A DNA stretch of 64,000 bases from Bacteroidota bacterium. GTDB taxonomy: Bacteria > Bacteroidota > Ignavibacteria > UBA10030. The notes below the pieces were generated by a model. That model was not told the DNA's origin. It did not search any database and saw only the letters and a list, made by a program, of their open reading frames with translations. The translations under genes were made by a program, and so were the position numbers. The stretch spans positions 21,105 through 85,104 of the forward strand of contig JBEKNC010000006.1 of NCBI GenBank assembly GCA_049523215.1, written 5' to 3'. Positions 28,949 to 51,602 of this stretch are shown piece by piece (position 1 is the first letter of the stretch; every line of letters begins with the position of its first letter).

Positions 28949-29025
28949 TCAAAGGGTCCAAGCTCTCGTGTTACCAAATAACTGAATTATCGACACCATC
29001 TGATAACCTGATCATATCATGTAGT

Positions 29026-29967
29026 ATGCAGACTAAACCATTCACTACTCCAATTCTTTTTCTCATCTTCAATCGACCTGATACCACTGAAAAAGTATTT
29101 CAACAGATTCGTAAAATTCGTCCCAAGCAGTTTTTCATTTCTGCAGATGGACCACGTCAACACAAAAGGGGTGAAGACCGGCTATGTGCCGAGACACAAA
29201 AGATTGTTGAAAAAGTAGATTGGAAATGCGAACTCCAGACAAACTTTTCGAAAAAGAACTTAGGATGTCGAATAGGTGTCAGCTCCGGCATCGACTGGTT
29301 CTTCAGTCACGTAGCCGAAGGAATTATTCTTGAAGATGATTGTCTTCCGGATATTTCATTTTTCCATTTTTGTAAAGTTCTCCTTAAATATTATAGAAAT
29401 GACGAACGAGTCATGCACATAGGTGGTGTCAACTTCCAGGATGGCATTGTTCGCGGTGCCGGTAATTACTATTTTTCAAAATTGAATCATATCTGGGGAT
29501 GGGCAACATGGAAAAGAGCTTGGGATAAATATGATGTGAACATATCGACATATCCACAATTGCTTGAGCAGAATCTGCTTTCTTCCATATGTGAGGAGCC
29601 ATCGATGAGGAAATATTGGCAGAAGAAATTTGGCCTCGTATATAAGAAAGAAGTGGATACTTGGGATTATCAATGGCAGTATGCACTGTATATTCATAAC
29701 GGATTAGCAATTCTTCCCAATCATAATCTTGTCTCAAACATAGGATTTGATGTTCATGCAACACACACCATTGACAATTTTCATACGCTTGCTAACCGCT
29801 CAACGGCGCGCATCGATACAGTGATCCATCCACCATTTATTGTTCCCGATTATTTAGCAGACGCATATACTTTCAAAAAATACTTGAATCCCAATAAATT
29901 GCTGAAATTGTGGCGGTTACTTCCCGTTAAATCTGCTTTGGCAAACATTATAAAGGAATATATCTGA
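29026..29967 (+). CDS. GT-A fold glycosyltransferase, GnT-I / HlpA-like
   Basis: ILFLIFNRPDTTEKV. EDD motif in IILEDDCLP. Confidence 0.55.
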   Translation: MQTKPFTTPILFLIFNRPDTTEKVFQQIRKIRPKQFFISADGPRQHKRGEDRLCAETQKIVEKVDWKCELQTNFSKKNLGCRIGVSSGIDWFFSHVAEGIILEDDCLPDISFFHFCKVLLKYYRNDERVMHIGGVNFQDGIVRGAGNYYFSKLNHIWGWATWKRAWDKYDVNISTYPQLLEQNLLSSICEEPSMRKYWQKKFGLVYKKEVDTWDYQWQYALYIHNGLAILPNHNLVSNIGFDVHATHTIDNFHTLANRSTARIDTVIHPPFIVPDYLADAYTFKKYLNPNKLLKLWRLLPVKSALANIIKEYI

Positions 29968-30032
29968 TTTGTCGGTAAAATTTGCGTCAATACTTCTTTA
30001 ATAAACAACATATTTCGTTTTCAAGGGGTATT

Positions 30033-30839
30033 ATGAAAAAAATCCTGCCTCCAATAGTATATGATATACTAATTCGCTTATACAGATTCTGTATTCCTTC
30101 CAACCCTCGCTGGAATACTATTCAGTCGGGCATACTGAAAGGAAATGAGATATATGTAAATCAACGGACGCCGCATTTCAAAATGATGGTGGATGGTAAT
30201 TATGATCTTTTTTTTACCGATTATCTTAATCGCTGTTCATGGTCAGGTGCTGTAGTATTGGATATAGGAGGTCATATAGGTTATTCAGCGCTTACTTTTG
30301 CCGCTTTAACTGGAGCAGAGGGTAAGGTAGTTGTTTTTGAGCCCAACCGATTTAATTTGGAAAGATTAATGATGAATGTTTCCAGGAATAAGAACTTAAG
30401 AGAGATCATTCGTATTGAACCTGTTGCATTATCAGATTTTAACGGGGAATCAGAGTTTAATCTTTCTTCCAATATTGATGATGAAACAAGCAGTGGAGGT
30501 TTTTTGGAAGGTGCTGCCAAACCTTTGGAAAATGTTATTTATTCGGAATATGGTTTCAGGAAAGAAAAAGTTAAGGTGGTCAGATTAGATGATTACATAA
30601 AGAAATTAGAAATTGCCAAAGTAGATCTTATCAAAATTGACGTGGAAGGTGCTGAGTACATGGCATTGGCTGGAGGTATTGAACTATTGAAAAGAGACAA
30701 ACCTACGCTACTTATTGAGGTGCATTCTATTATAGCTATGATGAAGACATGCGAACTTCTTCTTCCACTCGGTTATAAGATAGAGATTTTGGATAAGGAT
30801 CAGCTAAGCAGATGTTTTATCTCTGCAGTATACTCATAG
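30033..30839 (+). CDS. FkbM-family methyltransferase
   Basis: VVLDIGGHIGYSALTFAAL...VVVFEPN. RBS aagggg upstream of the ATG at 30033. Confidence 0.7.
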   Translation: MKKILPPIVYDILIRLYRFCIPSNPRWNTIQSGILKGNEIYVNQRTPHFKMMVDGNYDLFFTDYLNRCSWSGAVVLDIGGHIGYSALTFAALTGAEGKVVVFEPNRFNLERLMMNVSRNKNLREIIRIEPVALSDFNGESEFNLSSNIDDETSSGGFLEGAAKPLENVIYSEYGFRKEKVKVVRLDDYIKKLEIAKVDLIKIDVEGAEYMALAGGIELLKRDKPTLLIEVHSIIAMMKTCELLLPLGYKIEILDKDQLSRCFISAVYS

Positions 30840-30915
30840 TTTGTACAAGTTGAAGCACCATCCAATATTAGTGAAATGGCAATCGGAAGTTGTATCCAGT
30901 TGAGATATCTATTAT

Positions 30916-30978
30916 AAAAAATGATCTTGTCGAGCAAATGTTCGTAATTTCCTTAGACGCAAGATCATGCATTTTTTA
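30916..30978. terminator. Possible bidirectional terminator between convergent genes (9-bp stem, long loop, T-run)
   Basis: aaaaatgatcttg...caagatcat-gcatttttt. Confidence 0.25.
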
Positions 30979-31035
30979 CACCATGCAGTTACGTTTTATC
31001 GGCTATTTTACAGAATTCTTCACACTCCCCAAAAA

Positions 31036-32277
31036 TTATTTCTGAATGTTTTCAAATAGTCTTTGATACCGTTTTGCTATTGTAGCCAGGTTAAACTTTT
31101 CCACGGCATAGGTTCTTGCATTTTTACTGAACTCCTCATATTTATTTTTGTTTTGAAGTAGTTCAAATGTTTTTTCTGCTGCGAGTTTGTAATCCCCGTT
31201 TGGTATACTGAAACCATTGTAACCATCTTTAATAATGCCTACAGTACCGCCCATTGCAAACGACACACAAGGAATCCCACAGGCTATTGCCTCCATGAGT
31301 ACCAGAGATACACTATCTGCTTTAGTAGGATATACGAATACATCACAGGTATTATATGCCTCCGACATTCTTTCATCTGAATTAATATATCCAAGATTAA
31401 CTGGCTGTATATTTTTCAAATATTCGATATTTTCCAAGTTATCTTTTCCAGCTAGAAGAACATAAATCTTTTCTTTTGTTAAATGATTAAGATAATTTAA
31501 AACCTTTATAAGATCCGCTCCACCTTTGAAAATATTGTTTTTGAGTTTTTCTGCAGAAAACATGATGACAGAAGCATGCTCAGGAATATACATTTTCTTC
31601 CTGAGATCAAATTTTCCCATAGGCTTAAAAATATCGGTGTCAATTCCATGCGGAATCAATTCTATTTTTCTCTTTTTCAGTAAAGGGCTCTGAATAGAAA
31701 GATTATACATCCATTCGGAAGGTGCAATAAAGGTAATGGAGGAACAGTCATAAATTTTTTTCTTTCTTTTGATGAGCCAGTTTCCTGTAGGCAAACCTAT
31801 TGCCGGGTAAATATTTTTCTCATTTTTCCCCGCTTTCATATTTTTCCAAGATTCATCGCCGAAGGTATGAGATGCATTTGCAGTGAAAGGCCACATGTCA
31901 TGCATCGTCCATACGGTACTAGCAATTTTGGAAATTTTAATAAGGTCTCCAATTACAAAGTATCCCCCGATTAAGTTATTGAGCCAGATGACATCCGGTT
32001 TTTCCTGTTTAAGTTTCTTGTAAATAAACCGTGGTGAAAAAGGAAGCCAAAGGTATTGTAATCCCAGAAGATTCATACCTATGTTAAACAATCTTTCAAT
32101 TTTTGATAAAAATTTATTGGCAGTAGTAGTGTAGATGCTGGCATGATTTACCGACTTTGTCCTTACCAAATAAAATACCTCATTATGCAAATCTTTTCTC
32201 AGTGCTTCGGCAACCCTGTATGTAGCAATGCCTGATCCTCCAATACGGTCTGATATATTGATTATAACAATTTTCAT
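31036..32277 (-). CDS. Glycosyltransferase family 4
   Basis: MKIVIINISDRIGGSGIATY... C-terminal GT-B donor-binding region. Confidence 0.8.
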   Translation of the reverse strand: MKIVIINISDRIGGSGIATYRVAEALRKDLHNEVFYLVRTKSVNHASIYTTTANKFLSKIERLFNIGMNLLGLQYLWLPFSPRFIYKKLKQEKPDVIWLNNLIGGYFVIGDLIKISKIASTVWTMHDMWPFTANASHTFGDESWKNMKAGKNEKNIYPAIGLPTGNWLIKRKKKIYDCSSITFIAPSEWMYNLSIQSPLLKKRKIELIPHGIDTDIFKPMGKFDLRKKMYIPEHASVIMFSAEKLKNNIFKGGADLIKVLNYLNHLTKEKIYVLLAGKDNLENIEYLKNIQPVNLGYINSDERMSEAYNTCDVFVYPTKADSVSLVLMEAIACGIPCVSFAMGGTVGIIKDGYNGFSIPNGDYKLAAEKTFELLQNKNKYEEFSKNARTYAVEKFNLATIAKRYQRLFENIQK

Positions 32278-32505
32278 CCTTAATACAGGTGTTATTTAAT
32301 TAATGATACAATCATTGTTCACAAACTGAGTAGTAGATGAGTGATTCCTATAAGTTATTGTCATTGTAACTGTTAAGATATTTTTCGATCCTCTTCTATT
32401 TCAATGCAAGAATGTTATATAAACTTGAAATAAATCAAAAGTTATTCAACAACAATGTAATGGCAAAGAACTTAAAAGGAGAGTCAATAGTATAGTAAGG
32501 ATAAT

Positions 32506-35520: not shown

Positions 35521-35595
35521 AAGAAATATCCTTCCGTTTTAGATTCCCACGTAAATGTACCCTGAATCCTATGGAATGTCAAAAGAGGAATAGAA

Positions 35596-36360
35596 TTACT
35601 TGCAGAGAAAATCTCCTTCGAGGAGGAGATGTCCGTTCTTCTGCCTCACCTGCGGTATCGGCATTTCATCGAAGGTTCTTCCGGAGAGCTCGCGGCCGGC
35701 TGCTTTCTTGCGGACACCACCCCATTGCTTAAAGAAAAATGGAACTTCTGCTTCCCGGCAGCGGCGCTTAATCTGCGTTACCCAGTCACGCTCCATCGGG
35801 CGCGCACCCGGACCCGATTCGCCGCCGACAATAACCCAATCAATTCCTCTCAGTGGAAGTCTTGAGATGGGGCCAAGCAGCGGTTCTAAGGAAAGAAATC
35901 TCACAGCTGCTGGCACTTTGACCAGTTCATGGATCCGGTCTGTATATTTTTGAGATTCGACGCTCACGCCCATCCAGACATTTTCCGGCCACGGGAGATA
36001 CGGCGCAATTTGTACTAACCGATCCGATCTCTTCGTGAGTATCTGGAAAGTATGCCAATGTGCACGCTTCATGGTATCAAAAACTTTTACGATGAAATCG
36101 CAGGGAACATCTTTATGCAATAAATCGCTCATCGAGTTCACAAAAATGACGCGCGGTTGTTTCCATTCGAGCGGCAATTCAACGATATCTTCCTGGAGCG
36201 TGACTTGAAATCCATTCCGATACCGTGATGATCCCATTGCCTGAAGCCGCATAGCCATCCGCTCTGCGTAGCAATTCTTGCAGCCCGGACTGATTTTACT
36301 GCAGCCGGTTACCGGGTTCCAGGTAGATTCAGTCCATTCAATATGAGATTTTATCGCCAT
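35596..36360 (-). CDS. Phage Gp37/Gp68-family (DUF5131) protein with an N-terminal three-Cys motif
   Basis: N-terminus [36 protein letters not shown] matches the hallmark IEWT..TWNP.TGC...SxGCxxCYA signature of PF07505. Confidence 0.7.
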
Positions 36361-36362
36361 GA

Positions 36363-37247
36363 TTAATCCTCGAAAAGAGGTCTTTGATCTGATGCATATT
36401 TTTTAACTTCTTTCCAATATCGATATCCTAAAGAATGGCGAGAAAAAAATGCCAAATGATATAGAGATAAATTTTTTTCATCTGATTTGATTTCAAGCAT
36501 TTGTTTAATCGATTCTTCTTTATAATTTAATGTAACCATTTGTTGTGCATATTCGTTCGCTAGAAATTTACGAAAACTTTTCCCTTTAATTTGTTCATTT
36601 TTCCAGCGACCTCTCCATTCTGATAATCCAAGAAATTTATCGATTCTTTGATTGTTATTCTCTATATAAATAGATTCGTTTCTGACTCCATCCATAGAAA
36701 GAGCAAGAAGAATCAAAAAATCAACATATCTTTGTGCACATAGAGTTCTGATCGTATCAAATTCTATATTTAAAGAGAATGGATCCACAAAACAGAAAGT
36801 TAAAACTTTGTTATTCCGAGAAGGCGTTGGAATAAGCTTTAAAACATCAGTGATTTTTTTATTGCAGTCACCTAATATATAATGTGCATTCACTTGTGGA
36901 TATTCAGATTCTACCCTTGTTTGCAACGCCTGTAATAATCCTTCATTTTCTTCACAAAAAATGTATTGATCAAATTTATTTGCTAGTCCTAAAGCAAGAA
37001 GGGGCGAACCCGCTAAGATTTTATCTGTGTTCCTAACTTTTGCCTTTCCCGAACCAGCAAAAAGATCAATATAGACAAGTTGATTCCATGAATGCCTTAT
37101 ACCCTTTAAAAAAAGATCACAATAGAGATGCACTAATTTATATTTTCTCTCTGCCCAACTCCCGACTTCTGGAATAATAAGCCCATCATCAGATGAACAA
37201 ATACCTGAATGGTCAATATTTAAGCTGTTATCAATTTTATTCCCCAT
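36363..37247 (-). CDS. TcmP-like 'three-Cys-motif partner' protein. Methyltransferase-fold with RsmD-like motifs
   Basis: Sits 3 nt upstream of the Gp37/68 gene. Motif I-like IDLFAGSG. Motif IV-like FCFVDPF (DPPF-like). Confidence 0.55.
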
Positions 37248-37361
37248 TTTTTCCCTTTCATGACAATTAATTTACTTCTTCGCTTCCTTTTCCTTCCTTA
37301 CACTCTCTGAATCACCTTCACCACCCACCTCCTTCCGCCTCAACAATGTCCCTAATCCCGG

Positions 37362-37787
37362 TTATTTCTTTTTCCCGCACTCAATACAATATCCTTTGTG
37401 AACACAAATCGTACCTTTACATCGGGAACAAGTCCATCTTATATCTTCGTTCTTTAAAAATTTTCTCATACTGAAATTTTTAATATTTTCAAGATTTTCG
37501 ATCATGCTCATATCGTATTTAGTTCGGTATCTTGTATCCAAATGTTTCAAATTATCGCAGGGGAAATTTCGGCATTCAAAACAAAACTTCGCTTTGCCTT
37601 TTTGAAATATTGTGCAGGTCTTGATTTTACATCTAACACGGGTGATCGGTTTATCGGTGTCCACTCCTCTACAACCGGGACATTTATTTTTTTCTCTCAA
37701 ATAAGCCATGCAAATGCCGCAGTTCATTCCGCAGGGGGCTACAAGAGAAAATTTATTCAAGGATTCCATCTTTTCTTTCTCACACAC
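37362..37787 (-). CDS. Cys-rich small protein, DUF3795-like
   Basis: APCGMNCGICMAY, CPGCRG, CFEC, CSRC, CIEC. 18 cysteines in 141 aa. Overlaps the repressor gene by 8 nt. Confidence 0.5.
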   Translation of the reverse strand: MCEKEKMESLNKFSLVAPCGMNCGICMAYLREKNKCPGCRGVDTDKPITRVRCKIKTCTIFQKGKAKFCFECRNFPCDNLKHLDTRYRTKYDMSMIENLENIKNFSMRKFLKNEDIRWTCSRCKGTICVHKGYCIECGKKK

Positions 37788-38442
37788 TCTTAATCACTTT
37801 TATGACGCGCCACATGAAAGTCACGTCCTTCTTGCGCACGACCATCGGTTCGTATTCGGGATTGAGTGGAATCAAATGTACAAACTGCTCATCGATTTTG
37901 ATCCGCTTCACGGTGTCCTCCTCATCCACGCGCACCACGCAGATATCACCGCTTCTCACTTCTAATTTTGGCGTTACCACGATGATGTCGCCGTTCTCAA
38001 TGCGGGGCGCCATGCTGTTTCCCTTCACTTCGAGTGCGAAAGCATTCGGGTCGCGAACATCATCCACCGTAATGTATCGGTCAGCATGATCGGAATGAAA
38101 CCGCTGACTCAATGCACCAGCTGGCACAGAGGCAAGCAAGGGGAGTGAAACGAGGTCTACTTTTTTATAACGGCTTGTCGGTAATGGTATAACCTTGGAT
38201 TTGTGCTGTTCAGCAGAAACCATCTCTCCTTCACCAGTCAGTAGCCAGTGAGCCGTTATGCCGGTTGCTTTGGCAATGCGCATGAGATAATTACTGTCAG
38301 GCACCTGTTCGCCTTTTTCCCAGCGTTGAACGGTGCGAGTGGCAATATCGATCTTCGCGGCAAGGTCAGCTTGATCAAATTGTTTTAACAACCGCGCTTC
38401 GCGGATGCGTTGTGCAATTGTAGATTTCATAGAGTTATTCAC
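37780..38442 (-). CDS. LexA-like / phage cI-like repressor (XRE-type HTH plus S24 autopeptidase)
   Basis: HTH: IAQRIREARLLKQFDQADLAAKIDIATRTVQRWEKG. Ala-Gly cleavage site VPAGAL. Ser in GNSMAP and Lys in TVKRIK. Confidence 0.8.
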   Translation of the reverse strand: MNNSMKSTIAQRIREARLLKQFDQADLAAKIDIATRTVQRWEKGEQVPDSNYLMRIAKATGITAHWLLTGEGEMVSAEQHKSKVIPLPTSRYKKVDLVSLPLLASVPAGALSQRFHSDHADRYITVDDVRDPNAFALEVKGNSMAPRIENGDIIVVTPKLEVRSGDICVVRVDEEDTVKRIKIDEQFVHLIPLNPEYEPMVVRKKDVTFMWRVIKVIKSV

Positions 38443-38471
38443 TTTCTTCGGAATTTTTTTCCACCACCCCT

Positions 38472-38882
38472 TTATCCCCTCCTCACAGAGGAGGGGACAT
38501 GGGGAGGAGTAATTTTCTCATTGTATCTTGTTGTCCATTCGTAAATCGTTTGAAGAACACCATCTATATTGTTGCAAACATCATCGTTGGTAAAGCGCAT
38601 AAAATGAATACCGAAAGATTCAATATACTTCTGCCGTTCGTTGTCATATTTCTCAGAGAGATAGCCATAGTGACTATCTCCATCAATTTCGATAGCGAGC
38701 TTGAGTTCTGGACAATAGAAATCAATGACATACTGATTCACACTATATTGCCGGCGAAATTTGAATCCATTCATTTGTTTTCGTGAAAGATGCAACCAGA
38801 TAACCGCTTCCGCCTTCGAAAGTGATCGACGTAATGCTTTACGTCGTGCTGTATATGTTTTGTTATTAAAGACAATCGACAT
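38472..38882 (-). CDS. DUF559 (Vsr-like endonuclease domain) protein
   Basis: YVIDFYCPELKLAIEIDGDSHY pattern. A GC-rich hairpin encodes the last 8 codons. Confidence 0.65.
   Translation of the reverse strand: MSIVFNNKTYTARRKALRRSLSKAEAVIWLHLSRKQMNGFKFRRQYSVNQYVIDFYCPELKLAIEIDGDSHYGYLSEKYDNERQKYIESFGIHFMRFTNDDVCNNIDGVLQTIYEWTTRYNEKITPPHVPSSVRRG
38476..38496. repeat. Perfect 9-bp-stem hairpin cccctcctc-aca-gaggagggg (REP-like). A related copy lies at 39160-39186
   Basis: Read directly from the sequence. Confidence 0.5.
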
Positions 38883-38913
38883 AGTCTTTTCATTATCAAC
38901 AGTTCAGGTTAAT

Positions 38914-38929
38914 ACGACATAAATGTCAT
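38914..38929. promoter_or_regulatory. Candidate operator site 1: ACGACAT-AA-ATGTCAT imperfect palindrome
   Basis: About 35 nt upstream of the DUF559/repressor operon start. Inverted copy of the same motif at 39023-39040. Confidence 0.35.
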
Positions 38930-39014
38930 AATCAAAATAATGCTTTTTATCCCATATTGTCAATAGCTTTGTGATAGAGCGGAAAACGACGACGGATAGC
39001 ATCGGAATCACTTC

Positions 39015-39043
39015 TTGACAAGATGACAAAAATGTCGTATTCT
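39015..39043 (+). promoter_or_regulatory. σ70-like promoter candidate TTGACA-17-TATTCT pointing toward the imuA-like/polB genes, with operator site 2 (ATGACA-AAAA-TGTCGT) filling the spacer
   Basis: TTGACA at 39015-39020. Operator at 39023-39040. TATTCT at 39038-39043. Confidence 0.35.
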
Positions 39044-39199
39044 TTTTTAGGAATATAAGTTCTCATTACTCAATGAGAGTGTTAATAATGATAGAGGAAC
39101 AATTCCCTCTCCTCATAAAAGAGGGTTAGGGTGAGGTCAAAAAAACTGACCCCCATCTTAGTCCTCCCCTTGGAAGGGAGGAGACTAATAAAAGAATTT

Positions 39200-39991
39200 A
39201 TGAGCAAAATAAAACCCATATCTCCCGCCCAGCATCACCGCCGGTACCCTGCTCCGCAGCCAACCGTGGATATACACGATGATGCGGTGCCTATTCGCTC
39301 TGAGCGGATGATTCATGCCTTTGCAGACAAGCCCGGCAAGGTATTTCTGCTGTACGGCGAGCGGTCTATTTTTCAACTATCGCTTCAGATGGCCGCACAC
39401 GCGATGGTTCAGGGAAATCCTATTGCCGTTGTAGACGGCTGCAACCGTTTCGATGTGCACGCGCTTTCACGATTTGCACGCGTACGGAAAATAGACCCGA
39501 ACAAGTTCCTCAATCATATCTTCATCTCGCGCGGCTTCACGTGTTATCAAATGGAACAGGCTATTACACATAAGCTGCCGGCGTTTCTTGCTACCATTCA
39601 TTCAAGCACTGCACTGGTCTTTGGACTGCTCGACACCTTTTACGACGAACAGGCATCTCTGCGTGAAGTGCGGCAGATTCTTCAGAGACTGCTCGGCTCG
39701 TTTCAAGAAATGAAATCGAAAGGAGTCTCGCTCCTGCTGGTGTGTTTGGAAAGGACCGTTGCACCGCAGGAACGCAATCAGTTATTTACCACACTCAAAA
39801 ACGGTGTGGATCGCGTGTATAAACTCGATACCAATGAACGCGGATCGCTTCAGCTCTACTTAGAATCTCAACAGCCCGTGCACGAACAAATAAAAGGAAC
39901 ATTGAATTATGGGACGAACCGTACCCACCTTTACCAACCTGATCGATGCGGAACTGGCAAGCTGGTCGAAGTTCCGCCGCGGACTGCGTAA
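39200..39991 (+). CDS. ImuA/SulA-like RecA-fold protein (degenerate Walker A)
   Basis: KPGKVFLLYGERSIFQLSLQMAAHA...IAVVDGCNRFDVHALSRFA...VSLLLV. Matches the ImuA/SulA family pattern. No GKS/T lysine. The listed ORF begins at a GTG at 39131. ATG at 39200 used here. Confidence 0.5.
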   Translation: MSKIKPISPAQHHRRYPAPQPTVDIHDDAVPIRSERMIHAFADKPGKVFLLYGERSIFQLSLQMAAHAMVQGNPIAVVDGCNRFDVHALSRFARVRKIDPNKFLNHIFISRGFTCYQMEQAITHKLPAFLATIHSSTALVFGLLDTFYDEQASLREVRQILQRLLGSFQEMKSKGVSLLLVCLERTVAPQERNQLFTTLKNGVDRVYKLDTNERGSLQLYLESQQPVHEQIKGTLNYGTNRTHLYQPDRCGTGKLVEVPPRTA

Positions 39992-40206
39992 AGACGATCA
40001 GGAAGTCTTCGACGAAATATTCCGCGCTGCAAAACTGCATCTGGCAGAAAATTTTTATGCGATGCGTGCAGTTCCGTTCGAAAGCATGATGATGTCGATT
40101 GTAGTAGAACAGCAGAAGACGCTTCGGCGATTAGAGGAAGAAAGGAAGAAGTTAAGTAGATGAGTCTGTGAGTAGATGAGTAAGAGAAGGATGGAATAAT
40201 AGAACT

Positions 40207-42537
40207 ATGATTCAATCAGGCAATCACCCAATGGCTCAATCACGCCTCTCTGCCTGGCTGTTCGATGTGTATCCGTCTGAACGCGGCGTTACACTCTGGT
40301 TCATCGGCCGGAACGGTGTACGGCTGCGCTGCTTCCGAAAATTCACGCCCTCGTTCTTTCTTCACCTGAACAATTTCGACGCCAAGCGTGCGGCGGTTCT
40401 TGCCAATCAGTGCCCTATTCCAATATCACTTGTACCAACCACCCGTACGGAAATTTATTCCGGCGATTCCATCGACGTGCTGCAAGTCTTTGTTCATGAT
40501 CCGATGCGGTTCAAGAAAGTTGTATGGTACTTCGAGAAATTTTTTCCACACTTTGCATTTTTTAATTCCGATGTTTCCGTGGAACAGCAATTTCTGTATG
40601 AAACACAGCTGTTTCCGCTGGCACTTGGCGAGTATGAGGTCAGCAAGGAAGAAGAACTTCTCTCCTGGCATCTCAATGACAACCGTGAAGCGCCGGAATA
40701 TGAGCTGCCGCCGTTTTCCATTATGCAGCTTCGCAACAGTCCCGACTTTGTCGGGATGCCGCCGAAGTACCAAAAGTTTCTGCAATTAGAGATCAGTTAC
40801 GACAGCCGGACATATGCTTTAGAACAAAATTCGCCGCGCGAACTGCTCGAAGCGTTCAACTGGCATCTGCATCACTGCGATCCCGACTTGCTCGTTACCG
40901 ATTACGGCGATGCTGTTCTTCTTCCGAAGATTCTGCAGCTTTCCAAACAGTTCAACATTCCTTTGCTTCTCAATCGAGACACTGAGGCACAGCACCGCAC
41001 GACGAAGGAATCAAGTTTCTTTCAGTACGGAAAGATTGTCCACAAAGACGGCGCATTCACGCTCGCCGGGCGCTGGCATGTCGATGCGAACAATTCTTTT
41101 ACCGTGAGCGAAGCCGATCTTGACGGATTATTCGAGATGACACGTCTGACACAAATGTGCGGACAGCGGCAGGGACGCGCGAGCATCGGCACATCGATGT
41201 CATCGATGCAGCTTTCGTGGGCTTACCGCAACAATGTTCTTATTCCGTCGAAGAAGCGCGAACCGGAGGAGTTCAAGTCAGCTGCAACACTGCTGCTTGC
41301 CGACCGCGGTGGACTTATTTTTAACCCTCCGCTTGGCTATCACGAAGATGTTGCTGAACTCGATTTCGTCTCGATGTACCCAAACATTATGGTCAACAAC
41401 AATGTCTCGCCGGAAACGATCAACTGTCGATGCTGTAAAAATGAAGTTGTTCCGGAACTCGGTTACACAATCTGCGAAAAGCGGAGAGGCGTTGTGCCGG
41501 AGACACTTCGCGCTGTTGTCGCCAAACGTGCGTACTACAAACGGAAGAAAAAAGAATTCAAGGGAAAAGATGAAGCGCTTTTTAAACGGTACGATTGCCA
41601 GCAAAGTGCGCTCAAGTGGATGCTGGTAAGCTGTTTCGGATATCTCGGCTACAAGAATGCGCGCTTCGGCCGCATCGAAGCGCACGAATCAGTCAATGCC
41701 TTTTCGCGGGACGCCATTCTCACTGCAAAAGAAATTGCCGAGAGCCGCGGCTACAAGCTTCTCCACGCTATCATCGATTGTGTGTGGCTGAAAAAGCCGG
41801 GCGCGACACAGAACGATTACGAAGAGCTTACGCGTGAAATCTCCACACGTGTCGGTATTGATATTTCGCTGGAAGGCATGTACAACTGGATTCTTTTCCC
41901 TGCTTCCAAAACTGATCCGTATATCGCTACAGCAAATCACTATGTGGGATGGTACCGGCATGGTGACATCAAAATGCGCGGCATTGAAGCGCGCCAGCGT
42001 GATACGCCGAAGTTCATCAAGAACATGCAGAAAGCAATGCTGGATAAAATGTCCGCCGCAAAGAATGTCGAGGAAGTATCGGCACTCGTGCCGGAGATGT
42101 TGGAGATCGCACGCGACTTCATTGCAATTCTTCAAAGCGGCCGCGCAAACCCGATGGAGCTTGTTCTCAAACGCCACATCACGCATGAGGCCGATGAATA
42201 TCTCAATAACAGCATCAGCGCGGTTGTCTCAAAGATGGTAGAAGAAATGGGAGTACATCTCTCAGCAGGCGAGTCGATCGAGTTCATTATTCTCGATCAA
42301 TCCGGCAAGAAAAAGCCTGAAAAAGCTAAACCTGTTGCGTTGTACGCATTCGAGGATGGCTACGATATTGAGCAGTATACCGAGCTTGCCTTGCGGGCAG
42401 TGGAAACGCTTCTCCTTCCTTTCGGCTACGATGTACAGCGGTTGAAAGCACATTTTAAAATCGGCATACCAAAACAAAAGCGCCTGCAGGTACCCCAAAA
42501 AAGTCAGGAACTCCCGTTGTTCCGAATCCAGGTCTAA
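40207..42537 (+). CDS. Family B DNA polymerase (Pol II-like) with apparently degenerate 3'-5' exonuclease motifs
   Basis: Motif A DFVSMYPNIM. Motif B KWMLVSCFGYLGY. Motif C region HAIIDCVWL. Pol II-like N-terminus AWLFDVYPSERGVTLWFIGRNG. Expected Exo I (F/V)D(I/V)E(T) position is occupied by FSIMQL. Alternative start ATG 40231. Confidence 0.75.
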   Translation: MIQSGNHPMAQSRLSAWLFDVYPSERGVTLWFIGRNGVRLRCFRKFTPSFFLHLNNFDAKRAAVLANQCPIPISLVPTTRTEIYSGDSIDVLQVFVHDPMRFKKVVWYFEKFFPHFAFFNSDVSVEQQFLYETQLFPLALGEYEVSKEEELLSWHLNDNREAPEYELPPFSIMQLRNSPDFVGMPPKYQKFLQLEISYDSRTYALEQNSPRELLEAFNWHLHHCDPDLLVTDYGDAVLLPKILQLSKQFNIPLLLNRDTEAQHRTTKESSFFQYGKIVHKDGAFTLAGRWHVDANNSFTVSEADLDGLFEMTRLTQMCGQRQGRASIGTSMSSMQLSWAYRNNVLIPSKKREPEEFKSAATLLLADRGGLIFNPPLGYHEDVAELDFVSMYPNIMVNNNVSPETINCRCCKNEVVPELGYTICEKRRGVVPETLRAVVAKRAYYKRKKKEFKGKDEALFKRYDCQQSALKWMLVSCFGYLGYKNARFGRIEAHESVNAFSRDAILTAKEIAESRGYKLLHAIIDCVWLKKPGATQNDYEELTREISTRVGIDISLEGMYNWILFPASKTDPYIATANHYVGWYRHGDIKMRGIEARQRDTPKFIKNMQKAMLDKMSAAKNVEEVSALVPEMLEIARDFIAILQSGRANPMELVLKRHITHEADEYLNNSISAVVSKMVEEMGVHLSAGESIEFIILDQSGKKKPEKAKPVALYAFEDGYDIEQYTELALRAVETLLLPFGYDVQRLKAHFKIGIPKQKRLQVPQKSQELPLFRIQV

Positions 42538-42697
42538 TTTCGAGAAGATATTCTGTTTTGCTGAGATGATTATGCAAAACAAGATTTGAATTTCAGATGA
42601 TCTCAGATTATCTTCCAGTGTGGTATGTTGTACGACGTTAAGACTTCAAATGCTGTCTATGGTGTTTGAGGTCATTTCAAAAACTAAAGGTGACTTC

Positions 42698-49742: not shown

Positions 49743-51602
49743 GTGCTTCGTTCAATCATCACAACATTTTTTATTACAACAAGTCTCTTAGCTCAAAACA
49801 AAGTTGACACGGTCCAACTGCTGCCACCTATACAAGCCAACATAAAGAAAGACACACTTTTCTTGCAAGTACAGCGTCCGGATAAGGATACTATTTGGAC
49901 ATTTGCCTCGCGTTATCGGATAGCCGCTTGCACACGTCCGGATGCGAAAGCATTTATTAACGGGAAGCAAACAAAAGTATATGCAAGCGGAGCGTTTGTT
50001 GAACTTGCACATATTAACGTCGATACAAATATTATTCGTTTCACCGTAAAGTCGGCAGCCGGTGATTCGTTGTGGAAGGAGTTTGTCATCATTTGTCCCG
50101 AACCGATGAAGAACTCACCGCACGACACGCTTGTCATCGAACAAGCTATGATGGAACCATCCGAAGATATGTGGTTGACAACAGGCGATGTGCTGGAAGT
50201 AAAATTTAAAGGAAGCCCGGGATGGGAAGCATCGTTTGATATTCCGAAAGTTGAATCAGGAATTCCAATGCGCGAAGTGCCGCCGAGCGAAGGCGGCGGA
50301 TTTACCGGCATCTACATCGGCCGCTACAAAGTAAAAGCGACTGACGTAACGCATGAAGTACAGATCGAATTCCGACTGAAGAAAGGTTTCTGGAGCCGTG
50401 AGAAAGCATACTCTACAGCGAAGATTTCTATTCTTCCAAAAGAATTACCGCGCGTTGCAGAAGTTATTGGCAAGCGTCCGTATCTCAATGCCGGGCTTGG
50501 TGAGGATCGGCTTGGTGGTTCAAAACTTGGTTTTCTTCAAGCGGGTGTGCGGGTAGAGGTAACAGGAAAAATCGGATCGCAGTACCGCATACGCTTATCA
50601 GAAACAATGGAAGCATGGCTGTCGGAAGAATTTGCAAAACTCCTTTCGCCGGATACGCCAGTAGTACGATCGCTCGCCGGCGCAATTTCTGCAACCGGCA
50701 GTAGTACAGAAGATATTGTTACGGTTGCTCTTTCTGAAAAGCTTCCTTTCACAAGCGAGCAGTCAGTCAATCCCAATGCAATTGTTGTGGATATCTATGG
50801 TGCAACATCGAATACAAATTGGATTTCGCAGCAGCTTTCTGCAAAAGGAATCGAAAGCATAACATGGAAACAAGTTGCTGCAAACCAGTACCAAATCATC
50901 ATCAGTCTTCTGCATTCACATTGGGGATATGATATTGACTATGCAAGTAATTTGCTGCGCGTGAAGATCCGTCGCGCGCCAATGATGGCGTCGCCCGATT
51001 CAGTTCTTTCCGGACTCACCATTGCCGTTGATGCAGGACATGGCGGCGACAATCACGGTGCAATCGGTGCAACGGGCGTACAAGAAAAAGATATGACCAT
51101 CTCGATGGTTCATTACGTTGATTCTATTCTAACCGCCAAGGGTGCAAAGGTTGTACTAACACGAACGGAAAATGACGGCGCGGCAATGTCCGAGCGCATA
51201 GATAAAATTGTTCGTTCAGGTGCGCGCCTGCTAGTAAGTCTTCATTGTAATTCTGCCGGTGATGCCTCCGATCCGCTTGCTCTTCGCGGGGTCAGCACGT
51301 ACTACCGACATATTGGTTTTAAACCACTTGCCGACATTATGTATGACAAGATGCTTGCTATCGGACTAAAACAGTTTGGTGTTGTAGGTGGCTTTAACTT
51401 TATGCTCAATTCACTAACACAATTGCCCAATGTGCTCATAGAAACGGCGTTTCTTTCTCATCCAGAAGATGAAATGCTTTTGTTGGATAATGGATTCCGA
51501 AAGAAGGTGGCGGAGCAGATTGTAAAAGGACTTGAAGAATTTGTGAAAATTAATGCAGATGGATCGGAAATTGCAAAGGATAAACTAAGAAGTAAAAAGT
51601 AG
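49743..51602 (+). CDS. N-acetylmuramoyl-L-alanine amidase (Amidase_3) with a long N-terminal domain
   Basis: C-terminal IAVDAGHGGDNHGAIG...VSLHCNSA Zn-ligand pattern. Confidence 0.85.
   Translation: MLRSIITTFFITTSLLAQNKVDTVQLLPPIQANIKKDTLFLQVQRPDKDTIWTFASRYRIAACTRPDAKAFINGKQTKVYASGAFVELAHINVDTNIIRFTVKSAAGDSLWKEFVIICPEPMKNSPHDTLVIEQAMMEPSEDMWLTTGDVLEVKFKGSPGWEASFDIPKVESGIPMREVPPSEGGGFTGIYIGRYKVKATDVTHEVQIEFRLKKGFWSREKAYSTAKISILPKELPRVAEVIGKRPYLNAGLGEDRLGGSKLGFLQAGVRVEVTGKIGSQYRIRLSETMEAWLSEEFAKLLSPDTPVVRSLAGAISATGSSTEDIVTVALSEKLPFTSEQSVNPNAIVVDIYGATSNTNWISQQLSAKGIESITWKQVAANQYQIIISLLHSHWGYDIDYASNLLRVKIRRAPMMASPDSVLSGLTIAVDAGHGGDNHGAIGATGVQEKDMTISMVHYVDSILTAKGAKVVLTRTENDGAAMSERIDKIVRSGARLLVSLHCNSAGDASDPLALRGVSTYYRHIGFKPLADIMYDKMLAIGLKQFGVVGGFNFMLNSLTQLPNVLIETAFLSHPEDEMLLLDNGFRKKVAEQIVKGLEEFVKINADGSEIAKDKLRSKK

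Follow-up and report, generated by a model that had tools for sequence, protein, structure and literature searches.

We analysed a region of about 7 kb (35596-42537) in a 64,000-nucleotide stretch of contig JBEKNC010000006.1 from the Bacteroidota assembly GCA_049523215.1; this whole stretch is called the window below. The region lies between a gene for an M28 peptidase and an outer-membrane-protein (OMP) gene with the arginine operon behind it, and the first-pass annotation had described it as one accessory island wedged between these housekeeping loci. We found that the region is a lineage-conserved DNA-damage locus and not a single acquired island. A gene for a LexA-type repressor stands divergent to a PolB2 mutasome operon, the unit is conserved together with its left flank, and the mosaicism comes down to three small local events. 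Our best explanation, to which we give a probability of roughly 80%, is a chromosomal SOS-type locus of an Ignavibacteria-like bacterium (Fibrobacteres-Chlorobi-Bacteroidetes, FCB, group) to which small foreign pieces were added later. Related loci used for comparison are named L081-L083, L161-L168 and L173-L175. The features of the region are as follows (aa, amino acids; GC, G+C fraction; GC3, the same at third codon positions; HTH, helix-turn-helix).

35596..36360, minus strand: DUF5131 protein (phage Gp37/Gp68 family), GC 0.503
36363..37247, minus strand: TcmP (three-Cys-motif partner protein), GC 0.321, GC3 0.217
37362..37769, minus strand: DUF3795 Cys-rich small protein, 135 aa, GC 0.358
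37780..38430, minus strand: HTH_3 + S24 LexA-type repressor, 216 aa, GC 0.495
38432..38913, minus strand: 482-bp insertion with the DUF559 gene (38472-38882), GC 0.392
38914..38963, minus strand: predicted repressor-side promoter (10/12 match) and operator 1
39015..39043, plus strand: predicted polymerase-operon promoter (10/12 match) and operator 2
39051..39199, plus strand: 149-bp GC-hairpin element, a gap in blastn alignments with relatives
39200..39991, plus strand: iRadA, 263 aa, GC 0.506, predicted Rad51/RadA fold
39909..40163, plus strand: PPB2 (PolB2-binding protein; Pfam DUF8156), 84 aa, MGRT N-terminus
40231..42537, plus strand: PolB2, 768 aa, GC 0.498, family-B DNA polymerase

The seven open reading frames (ORFs) listed previously are all present at or near the positions assigned to them and their family calls hold; an eighth gene, PPB2 (39909-40163), had been missed. 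The longest ORFs run wider than the genes above (DUF3795 37362-37787, repressor 37780-38442, iRadA 39131-39991, PolB2 40207-42537), as the deposited annotation picks shorter ATG starts (37769, 38430, 39200 and 40231, respectively). A mosaic composition had been proposed and is borne out by the GC of the individual genes. The long ORFs of the window have a mean GC of 0.445 (standard deviation 0.039), and the core genes are uniform, slightly above this mean and similar to the M28 gene (0.489): DUF5131 0.503, repressor 0.495, iRadA 0.506 and PolB2 0.498. The outliers are TcmP (0.321; GC3 0.217, ∼3.5 standard deviations low), DUF3795 (0.358) and DUF559 (0.392), and these three map to discrete events, namely an exchange of TcmP, the presence of DUF3795 and a DUF559 cassette. 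Therefore the five-gene minus-strand block is AT-richer than the polymerase gene in these three genes, as had been claimed for the whole block, whereas DUF5131 and the repressor equal PolB2. A glycosyltransferase/polysaccharide cluster left of the locus (29000-32500) is likewise AT-rich (GC 0.31-0.39), so low GC is not specific to the studied region.

The polymerase operon

The right half of the region is, to judge from its sequence, the bacterial PolB2 mutasome operon published by Timinskas, Timinskas and Venclovas (2025, PMC11791011). In that survey the order iRadA-PPB2-PolB2 is fixed and the only one reported; PPB2 is small and helical and bears a conserved MGRT arm at its N-terminus, PolB2 lacks the first Asp of the DxD motif (IID in S. 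islandicus Dpo2) as well as an exonuclease active site, and iRadA is a RadA homologue without the ATPase residues and without the N-terminal helical domain. The proteins are described as a PolB2-iRadA-(PPB2)3 heteropentamer that is induced by DNA damage and engaged in translesion extension (PMC11791011 and the Sulfolobus work cited there), a clamp-binding motif is expected close to the C-terminus of either PolB2 or iRadA, iRadA-PPB2 fusions have been published, and the operon class reportedly goes back to an ancient archaeal transfer. Genes for LexA are enriched near bacterial PolB2 operons, and so are DUF72 and SRAP genes (PMC11791011). In its supplement, type 1a operons of Ignavibacteriales are listed with an identical motif-C string and near-identical flanking sequence. 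The operon is thus already catalogued for this group and is not new here. We identify it in the window by the order of three adjacent plus-strand genes, iRadA-PPB2-PolB2 (shared by L161 and L165), the MGRT motif of PPB2, the IID of PolB2 motif C, the lost exonuclease residues and the Rad51/RadA fold of iRadA without Walker A.

The 263-aa protein encoded first in the operon had been called ImuA-like. In profile scans it had no Pfam or NCBIfam family match, and its best PDB sequence matches were RadA/Rad51 proteins with a weak E-value (0.075). Its AlphaFold2 (AF2) model has a core with a predicted local distance difference test score (pLDDT) generally of 81-95 and a disordered stretch of 28 residues at the N-terminus, and the top 50 Foldseek matches of this model were all Rad51/RadA/DMC1 ATPase domains (E ∼1e-9). 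No Walker A motif was found in the sequence, and the homologues (n = 565) are all unnamed. Judged by the model, the protein is iRadA, a catalytically inactive RadA/Rad51 homologue. The identity as ImuA was rejected, since every top fold match belongs to the archaeo-eukaryotic Rad51/RadA type and iRadA also suits the operon context. The annotated start of the gene is the ATG at 39200, not the GTG at 39131.

PPB2 begins with MGRTVPTFTNLIDAE..., a sequence that is near-identical across six loci, where the first 27 residues show only conservative changes at five positions. The protein matches phrog_26583 (1e-10), and its orthologues in L161, L163 and L168 are annotated as PF26485 (DUF8156). For PPB2 itself the Pfam scan returned no family, PF26485 coming solely from these precomputed annotations of orthologues; the Pfam copy used in the scan may predate PF26485. 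PPB2 overlaps the tail of iRadA by 83 nt (39909-39991) in the +1 frame relative to iRadA, and in L165 the overlap is 104 nt. The iRadA tail (YGT...KLVxVPPRTA) appears conserved, yet its pLDDT in the model is <50 and it is absent from homologues that end earlier; it is probably conserved because the N-terminus of PPB2 is constrained. As iRadA-PPB2 fusions have been published, one may ask whether frameshifting ever joins both proteins here.

PolB2 matches PF00136 (2e-33), its best NCBIfam match is PRK05761 (archaeal type B), and in the PDB sequence search only its polymerase domain aligned to archaeal PolB structures (E 2e-46). Motif A (DFVSMYP) is intact; motif C reads HAIIDCVWL versus YSDTDG/IDTDG, meaning that the first catalytic Asp is lost. 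The Exo II Asp is replaced by Leu (HMMER alignment with P. abyssi PolB, PDB 4fm2), Exo I has changed from DxE to HxN and Exo III is absent (MAFFT alignment, with a KOD polymerase sequence as reference). In five loci the last 30 residues of PolB2 keep SQELPLF or KQIPLF, the window copy having QELPLF.

The repressor and its operators

The repressor carries Pfam HTH_3 (also Phage_CI_repr) in its N-terminal part and Peptidase_S24 in its C-terminal part. The S24 domain aligns to E. coli LexA (PDB, 2e-12) with VPAGA, GNSMAP and VKRI placed at A84-G85, S119 and K156, and the HTH matches the 434 and P22 repressors in the PDB sequence search. The match to TIGR00498 spans residues 74-219 only and falls under the cutoff of that model, and the winged HTH of LexA (LexA_DNA_bind, PF01726) was not found at the N-terminus, which is of the HTH_3/Phage_CI_repr type. 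With these domains the protein is a non-canonical LexA-type repressor, predicted to combine a cI/434-type HTH with a self-cleaving S24 domain. Of the 692 homologues obtained, the best 120 share 71% identity or more with it and typically have 216 aa. Their named sources are Ignavibacteriales, Bacteroidota or Bacteroidetes metagenome-assembled genomes (MAGs), and the Joint Genome Institute labels many of them ‘repressor LexA’. The repressor also matches the phage repressor family phrog_4. In 2.9 million viral contigs no close relative was found, only partial matches of 26-40%, and on these grounds a prophage origin of this copy was rejected. Of the previously suggested cI/LexA-type autocleaving repressor controlling divergent modules, the arrangement stands, as the S24 repressor lies between divergent promoters with a shared conserved operator; its prophage-like trait is limited to the type of HTH.

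Both divergent promoters are predicted in the 248-bp intergenic region between the DUF559 ORF and the longest iRadA ORF. The plus-strand promoter of the polymerase operon (TTGACA-17-TATTCT, 39015-39043) and the minus-strand promoter of the repressor (-35 TTGACA at 38963-38958, 18-nt spacer, -10 TATTTT at 38939-38934) each match the sigma-70-type consensus in 10/12 positions. Operator 1, ACGACATAAATGTCAT (38914-38929), is located directly downstream of the minus-strand -10, and operator 2, ATGACAAAAATGTCGT (39023-39038), fills the -35/-10 spacer of the polymerase promoter. Both match the search pattern ATGACANNNATGTCGT exactly and are inverted to each other, and the consensus is the palindrome (C/T)GACA-W4-TGTC(G/A). 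Two further promoter-like sites, which share the hexamers TTGACA-17-TACATT, precede the M28 gene (35582-35554) and the next glycosyltransferase gene (33808-33780), both on the minus strand. Bacteroidetes promoters are of the TTTG type; unlike them, the promoters of this lineage seem, as far as such matches can tell, to be of the sigma-70 type with -35 and -10 elements.

How well are these sites conserved? Operator 1 is kept in position and sequence in L081, L161, L165 and L166, and the 29-nt block of the polymerase promoter is 96.6% identical to that of L081. The polymerase-side operator reads TACGACATTTTTGTCG in 7/7 other polymerase-operon loci, from which the window copy, TACGACATTTTTGTCA, is one base off. 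GACA-N4-TGTC occurs ≤150 bp upstream of the repressor orthologue in the window and in L081, L161, L162, L163, L164, L165, L166, L167 and L168 (L082 ends inside the repressor gene, so its upstream region is not covered in this count), with one or two sites per locus and an all-A/T spacer in all but one of them. Counted as GACA-W4-TGTC, the site is present at fixed promoter positions in the window and in 8/8 other loci whose upstream region is retained. Across ∼210 kb no site with an A/T spacer was found beyond the repressor upstream regions, and the scan of the 64-kb window gave no further good site besides operators 1 and 2; the 20-kb loci of the relatives likewise yielded none outside these upstream regions. 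A third GACA-N4-TGTC at 50124, located within the coding sequence of an amidase and with a GC spacer, was judged to be due to chance; matches with two mismatches were unconvincing, and the one inspected (33967) falls inside the M28 gene. The operator is a strong phylogenetic footprint, and it predicts autoregulation together with control of the polymerase operon.

In the mechanism that we propose, repressor dimers on operators 1 and 2 would shut both divergent promoters. DNA damage, sensed as RecA on single-stranded DNA, would trigger self-cleavage at the Ala-Gly site and both promoters would be derepressed. An error-prone translesion polymerase like the one described for archaeal Dpo2 would then form from iRadA, a PPB2 trimer and PolB2, and this polymerase would probably be tethered to the beta clamp via the conserved C-terminal Q(E)LPLF.

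A different reading is that the S24 repressor regulates only the neighbouring PolB2 cassette and is not a general SOS regulator, or that it responds to a signal other than RecA*. The repressor is indeed adjacent and divergent to the PolB2 operon in 7/9 contexts in which the upstream side is retained (the window, L081, L161, L163, L165, L166 and L168), and within the 64-kb window the operator is confined to the studied locus. On the other hand, orthologues with the same operator occur without PolB2 in L164 and L167, and the protein is extremely conserved over hundreds of clusters. Canonical LexA is reported to be absent from the Bacteroidetes/Chlorobi group. In Bacteroidetes, global SOS regulation is carried out by LexA proteins of the cI type (Sanchez-Osuna et al. 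2021, PMC8565304), which also speaks against a purely local role, and we regard such a role as unlikely, while giving it some weight.

Position among relatives and later additions

We collected 160 loci anchored on the M28 gene, 80 from GTDB species representatives and the rest from a metagenome scan. By this gene the closest GTDB relatives are Ignavibacteriota MAGs with 50-54% identity; the 80 representative loci have no neighbour in common with the window and are uninformative for an empty-site test. The metagenome scan yielded three useful relatives, L081-L083. If the region had been inserted as one piece, the M28 gene might adjoin the OMP/argC genes elsewhere; this arrangement was found in 0/160 loci. 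The gene orders of the relatives are listed below (GT, glycosyltransferase; // separates divergent genes).

L081: iRadA // repressor - DUF3795 - four unrelated genes - M28 - GT
L082: repressor - DUF3795 - divergent TcmP - DUF5131 - M28 - GT
L083: DUF5131 next to M28; the sequence ends inside DUF5131, with the repressor side outside
L161: his operon - ACT_7 - PolB2 - PPB2 - iRadA // repressor - cupin - M28 - GT
L165: his operon - ACT_7 - 364-aa ORF - PolB2 - PPB2 - iRadA // repressor - TcmP-like - DUF5131 - OmdA-like - GT (no M28)
L166: his operon - ACT_7 - PolB2 (fragmented calls) - PPB2 - iRadA // repressor - 72-aa ORF - DUF5131 - SBBP, Por_Secre_tail and AHSA1 genes - GT (no M28)
L163, L168: repressor divergent from DUF72 - SRAP - iRadA - glyoxalase - PPB2 - PolB2
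L164, L167: repressor alone, with its operator

The unit of repressor and divergent polymerase operon recurs in L081, L161, L163, L165, L166 and L168, and the repressor//iRadA-PPB2-PolB2 arrangement keeps its place relative to the left flank (GT with or without M28) down to an M28 identity of 66-69%. L163 additionally has a Cdd1/HHH gene between iRadA and PPB2, and the extensions of L163 and L168 match the DUF72/SRAP enrichment reported in PMC11791011. The right flank varies, with OMP and argC-argJ-argB-argG in the window versus ACT_7 and the his operon in L161, L165 and L166. Nucleotide homology to L161 and L166 ends at 42539, at the PolB2 stop codon, and a rearrangement breakpoint thus coincides with the end of the polymerase operon (42538 onward). 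Identity at four-fold degenerate sites is 0.28-0.41 for the flanking GT and M28 genes and 0.32-0.46 for the repressor, which is near saturation and argues against a recent acquisition, with the caveat of a GC3 bias.

The signs of an integrative element were also sought. As had been noted before, there is no tRNA gene that could serve as a target (none in 28000-50000), and no integrase or capsid gene is present among the eight region proteins in family scans, whose PHROG matches go no further than a generic repressor, a polymerase and DUFs. Short direct repeats, which had been suggested as a check, were not found bracketing 35596/42537. An empty site was not encountered, and the genes are conserved piece by piece and not as a block, unlike what is expected of a prophage or an integrative island. 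From the suggestion of a stably domesticated damage-inducible island we therefore keep the damage-inducible logic (cI/LexA-type) as a prediction and drop the island.

According to our best explanation, three additions would account for the foreign pieces. The first would be the DUF559 cassette, inserted in the repressor leader and now lying behind the operator. In L081, L161, L165 and L166 the operator is 13-17 nt away from the repressor ATG; in the window the 482-bp insertion (38432-38913) sits between operator 1 and the repressor start and leaves promoter and operator intact. Its gene matches PF04480 (5e-33), a family with a Vsr-like endonuclease fold. In the MAG of a close relative the accessions of DUF559 and the repressor directly follow one another; this insertion is therefore shared. 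The second addition would be the 149-bp hairpin element (39051-39199), placed in the leader of the polymerase operon, where it lies between the promoter and the iRadA start; L165 and L161 lack it, and L081 has at this position a different, shorter insert with a GC hairpin (L081 ∼715-760). Alignment with blastn and of the aligned sequences bounds both insertions to the base. The GC hairpins at 38468-38504 (in the DUF559 insertion) and at 39106-39125 and 39163-39181 (in the 149-bp element) are related to one another, examples being CCCCTCCTC-ACA-GAGGAGGGG and CCTCCC-CTTGGA-AGGGAGG. They may belong to a family resembling repetitive extragenic palindromic (REP) sequences or miniature inverted-repeat transposable elements (MITEs). 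A search of the 64-kb window with the 19-nt hairpin motif at 39163-39181 gave no second copy. In the variable slot of L081 (2512-3060), a gene read from its translation resembles a REP-associated tyrosine transposase (RAYT).

The third addition would concern the slot between the repressor and M28, which is variable and here holds DUF3795 and TcmP-DUF5131, the TcmP allele having been swapped. The DUF3795 protein matches PF12675 (7e-9) and contains five CxxC pairs; it has 15 Cys (16 with a GTG start) and one CPGC, fewer than the 18 Cys and two CPGC motifs counted before. The 8-nt overlap with the repressor ORF, from which translational coupling had been derived, needs the GTG at 37787, whereas the ATG at 37769 (deposited annotation; the L081 orthologue begins METLNKF) leaves a gap of 10 nt. 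DUF3795 follows the repressor in L081 and L082, and elsewhere this place is taken by a cupin gene, a TcmP-like gene, a 72-aa ORF or unrelated genes. Resting on an unlikely start codon and set against this variable content of the slot, DUF3795 was rejected as a conserved, coupled partner; it is variable cargo downstream of the repressor.

DUF5131 matches PF07505 (9e-102), PDC-M41B (6e-120) and phrog_2045, and, under the cutoff, TIGR04471 (‘radical SAM mobile pair protein A’, 5e-21); it carries a three-Cys motif and is distantly related to that protein. It is 85-93% identical to the proteins of L082, L165 and L166 and belongs to a 62-member cluster at 90% identity. TcmP matches TIGR04474 (1e-41) and PDC-M41A (4e-26), is the only member of its cluster and has its nearest relative at 73% identity. 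In the PDB sequence search DUF5131, DUF3795 and TcmP gave nothing useful. The AF2 model of TcmP (pLDDT 88.6) had RlmJ as the top 11 Foldseek matches in the PDB (E 6e-8), and the motifs DLFAGxG and DPF are conserved in the alignment. The model points to a class-I S-adenosylmethionine methyltransferase fold that is nearest to the rRNA m6A methyltransferase RlmJ. Compared with L082, DUF5131 aligns at 80% and DUF3795 with the repressor at 78% nucleotide identity; the TcmP segment in between (36343-37304) has no nucleotide similarity to L082 and a protein identity of 25%. The TcmP of L165 is related to that of the window in its 3' part. By these alignments the window TcmP is a swapped allele next to a retained DUF5131. 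Such an exact exchange (breakpoints 36343 and 37304) resembles the swapping of specificity subunits in defence systems.

TcmP and DUF5131 are adjacent with a 2-nt gap, and both are components of the PADLOC candidate PDC-M41. TcmP followed by DUF5131 is self-contained in unrelated contexts (L173-L175: Melioribacter, an Acidobacteriota MAG and a site beside an IS3-type transposase gene and a DUF559 gene), and none of these three has an S24 neighbour beside the pair. In L175 (7001-9220 of a 3-Mb contig) the pair stands directly beside an IS3-family transposase gene and is itself followed by DUF559; this 3-Mb contig is unrelated to the window, and TcmP, DUF5131 and DUF559 thus co-occur there as they do in the window. 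In S. meliloti, TcmP is encoded near the Hna defence gene (SMa2243 and SMa2245 appear in one expression table), and TcmP is also found in prophage cargo; otherwise the literature on DUF5131 and TcmP gave incidental mentions only. We consider the pair a candidate mobile module for defence or nucleic-acid modification, parked in the variable slot.

Could this cargo be controlled by the repressor? DUF559, the repressor, DUF3795, TcmP and DUF5131 might form one damage-inducible transcript, with the cargo functionally under SOS control. The five genes all point the same way and are separated by 29, 10, 114 and 2 nt, no convincing terminator was found between them, and no 10/12 promoter precedes the M28 promoter at 35582. 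In addition, the DUF559 cassette lies between the operator and the repressor start, and DUF5131, with or without TcmP, is downstream of the repressor in the window, L082, L165 and L166 and next to M28 in L083. These points are countered by the occurrence of TcmP-DUF5131 without an S24 neighbour outside the lineage, by the varying content of the slot (cupin, TfoX-like and RAYT-like genes and others) and by a weak promoter-like site that precedes TcmP (37261..37234). From this layout, read-through from the repressor promoter into the cargo is possible; that the cargo as a whole is under functional SOS control seems to us improbable, though we give it some weight.

A broader version of this idea is that the HTH_3-S24 repressor, acting through an operator not described before, is the general SOS regulator of Ignavibacteria-like bacteria and that its leader, together with the slot, is a landing pad which puts selfish or defensive cargo under damage control, here the DUF559 cassette and the TcmP-DUF5131 pair with its exchangeable TcmP alleles. 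We hold this to be doubtful and offer it as a speculation. If true, the non-canonical LexA solution would extend beyond Bacteroidetes, and stress that induces prophages would be coupled to an anti-phage or DNA-modification module as well as to an archaeal-type mutasome.

Several observations weigh against our explanation of the region as a chromosomal SOS-type locus, or weaken parts of it. The four-fold sites of the PolB2 operon are less diverged than those of the flanking genes (0.44-0.52 versus 0.28-0.41). This excess similarity could reflect a shared GC3 bias or a later exchange of the cassette; as evidence for a recent acquisition of the PolB2 cassette it is ambiguous, being confounded by that bias. 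The occurrence of the repressor without PolB2 in L164 and L167 fits a global role and is no proof of it. The loss of Exo I and Exo III depends on the KOD reference sequence, Exo II alone being independently backed by a PDB alignment. Finally, what links the C-terminal QELPLF of PolB2 to the beta clamp is a resemblance to the clamp-binding motif (QLxLF).

We consider it very improbable that all 7 kb between M28 and OMP/arg were acquired as one accessory island or are what remains of a domesticated prophage: the mosaic composition, the phage-like repressor (cI-type HTH, phrog_4), the Gp37/Gp68 family of DUF5131 and the reported ancient archaeal origin of the PolB2 operon class would suit it, but there is no empty site among the 160 M28-anchored loci, repressor and PolB2 keep their position relative to the left flank despite near-saturated synonymous divergence, the core genes share the GC of M28 slightly above the window mean, neither integrase, tRNA gene nor flanking repeats were found, the repressor has no close relative in viral contigs, and the AT-richness is due to three small events, separate from one another and with defined boundaries.

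The chromosomal SOS-type locus explains the puzzling ‘island’ as one more example of the bacterial PolB2 mutasome, a system described only recently, accompanied by its likely regulator. The new elements are modest: in an Ignavibacteria-like lineage the SOS partner of PolB2 would be a cI-type S24 repressor and not the canonical LexA of the published survey, and a concrete footprinted operator with its promoter architecture is now available. This gives an experimental handle on the damage induction of PolB2 in bacteria and opens the way to mapping the SOS regulon in a phylum-level group for which none is known to have been described; the literature search turned up one paper that mentions Ignavibacteria, LexA and SOS together, a survey of polymerase III alpha subunits. 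Small mobile pieces have colonised an SOS-controlled leader while sparing promoter and operator, and the TcmP half of a candidate defence pair receives its first fold-level clue (an RlmJ-like methyltransferase) along with an allele exchange.

Comparison with known systems

For the bacterial PolB2 operon a further reference is Makarova et al. (2014), and its archaeal prototype is Sulfolobus Dpo2. The locus in the window agrees with the type 1a PolB2 mutasome (PMC11791011) in its genes and their order, in MGRT and IID, in the dead exonuclease, in an iRadA without ATPase and in the presence of an SOS-type regulator next to it. It differs in the kind of regulator, as the neighbouring ‘LexA’ of the survey is defined as PF01726 plus PF00717, i.e. 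a canonical winged-helix protein, whereas the neighbour here is an HTH_3/cI-type S24 protein. An Ignavibacteriales passage of the supplement has DUF72 and no LexA before iRadA. Given this definition and the DUF72 before iRadA, a cI-type partner was probably not captured by the survey. Furthermore, iRadA and PPB2 overlap here by 83 nt out of frame, while in published operons they are separate or fused, and the DUF72, SRAP and glyoxalase genes of L163/L168 are absent from the window locus.

The regulatory half resembles the non-canonical LexA of Bacteroidetes (PMC8565304): both occur in the FCB group and involve a repressor, encoded in the chromosome, whose S24 domain is joined to a cI-type HTH instead of the LexA winged helix, and in both a short palindromic operator lies in the promoter of the repressor gene as well as ahead of an operon for an error-prone polymerase. 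The operator is GACA-N4-TGTC here versus GGA-N5-TCC or CTAA-N5-TTAG in Bacteroidetes, whose proteins also have an extra C-terminal helix, the lineage is Ignavibacteria-like (that study makes no mention of Ignavibacteria or Chlorobi), and the polymerase under control is PolB2 instead of umuDC, dinB or imuA-imuB-dnaE2. By this analogy the locus would work like the Bacteroidetes family; membership in it is unproven, the operator being of another sequence. With imuA-imuB-dnaE2 and E. coli umuDC (Pol V) the locus shares a multi-subunit error-prone polymerase that has an accessory protein of the RecA superfamily and is placed under an S24 repressor, with damage induction known there and predicted here; the earlier label ‘ImuA-like’ had sensed this likeness. 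In contrast to these systems, its polymerase is a member of family B instead of C or Y, its accessory protein, archaeal in origin, represents the RadA/Rad51 type and not ImuA/RecA, and there is no equivalent of ImuB or UmuD, PPB2 being unrelated to both.

As in PDC-M41 of PADLOC, which is a candidate defence system, both components match strongly, TcmP precedes DUF5131 and the two travel as a unit; unlike in other examples of PDC-M41, the pair is downstream of an SOS-type repressor here and the TcmP half alone has been exchanged. Finally, the arrangement recalls the cI immunity region of lambda and other temperate phages, since an HTH is joined to an S24 domain with AG/Ser/Lys and divergent promoters share operators. 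Unlike that region, the locus lacks phage genes, an integrase and viral relatives, and the predicted targets of its repressor are a polymerase operon and the repressor's own gene.

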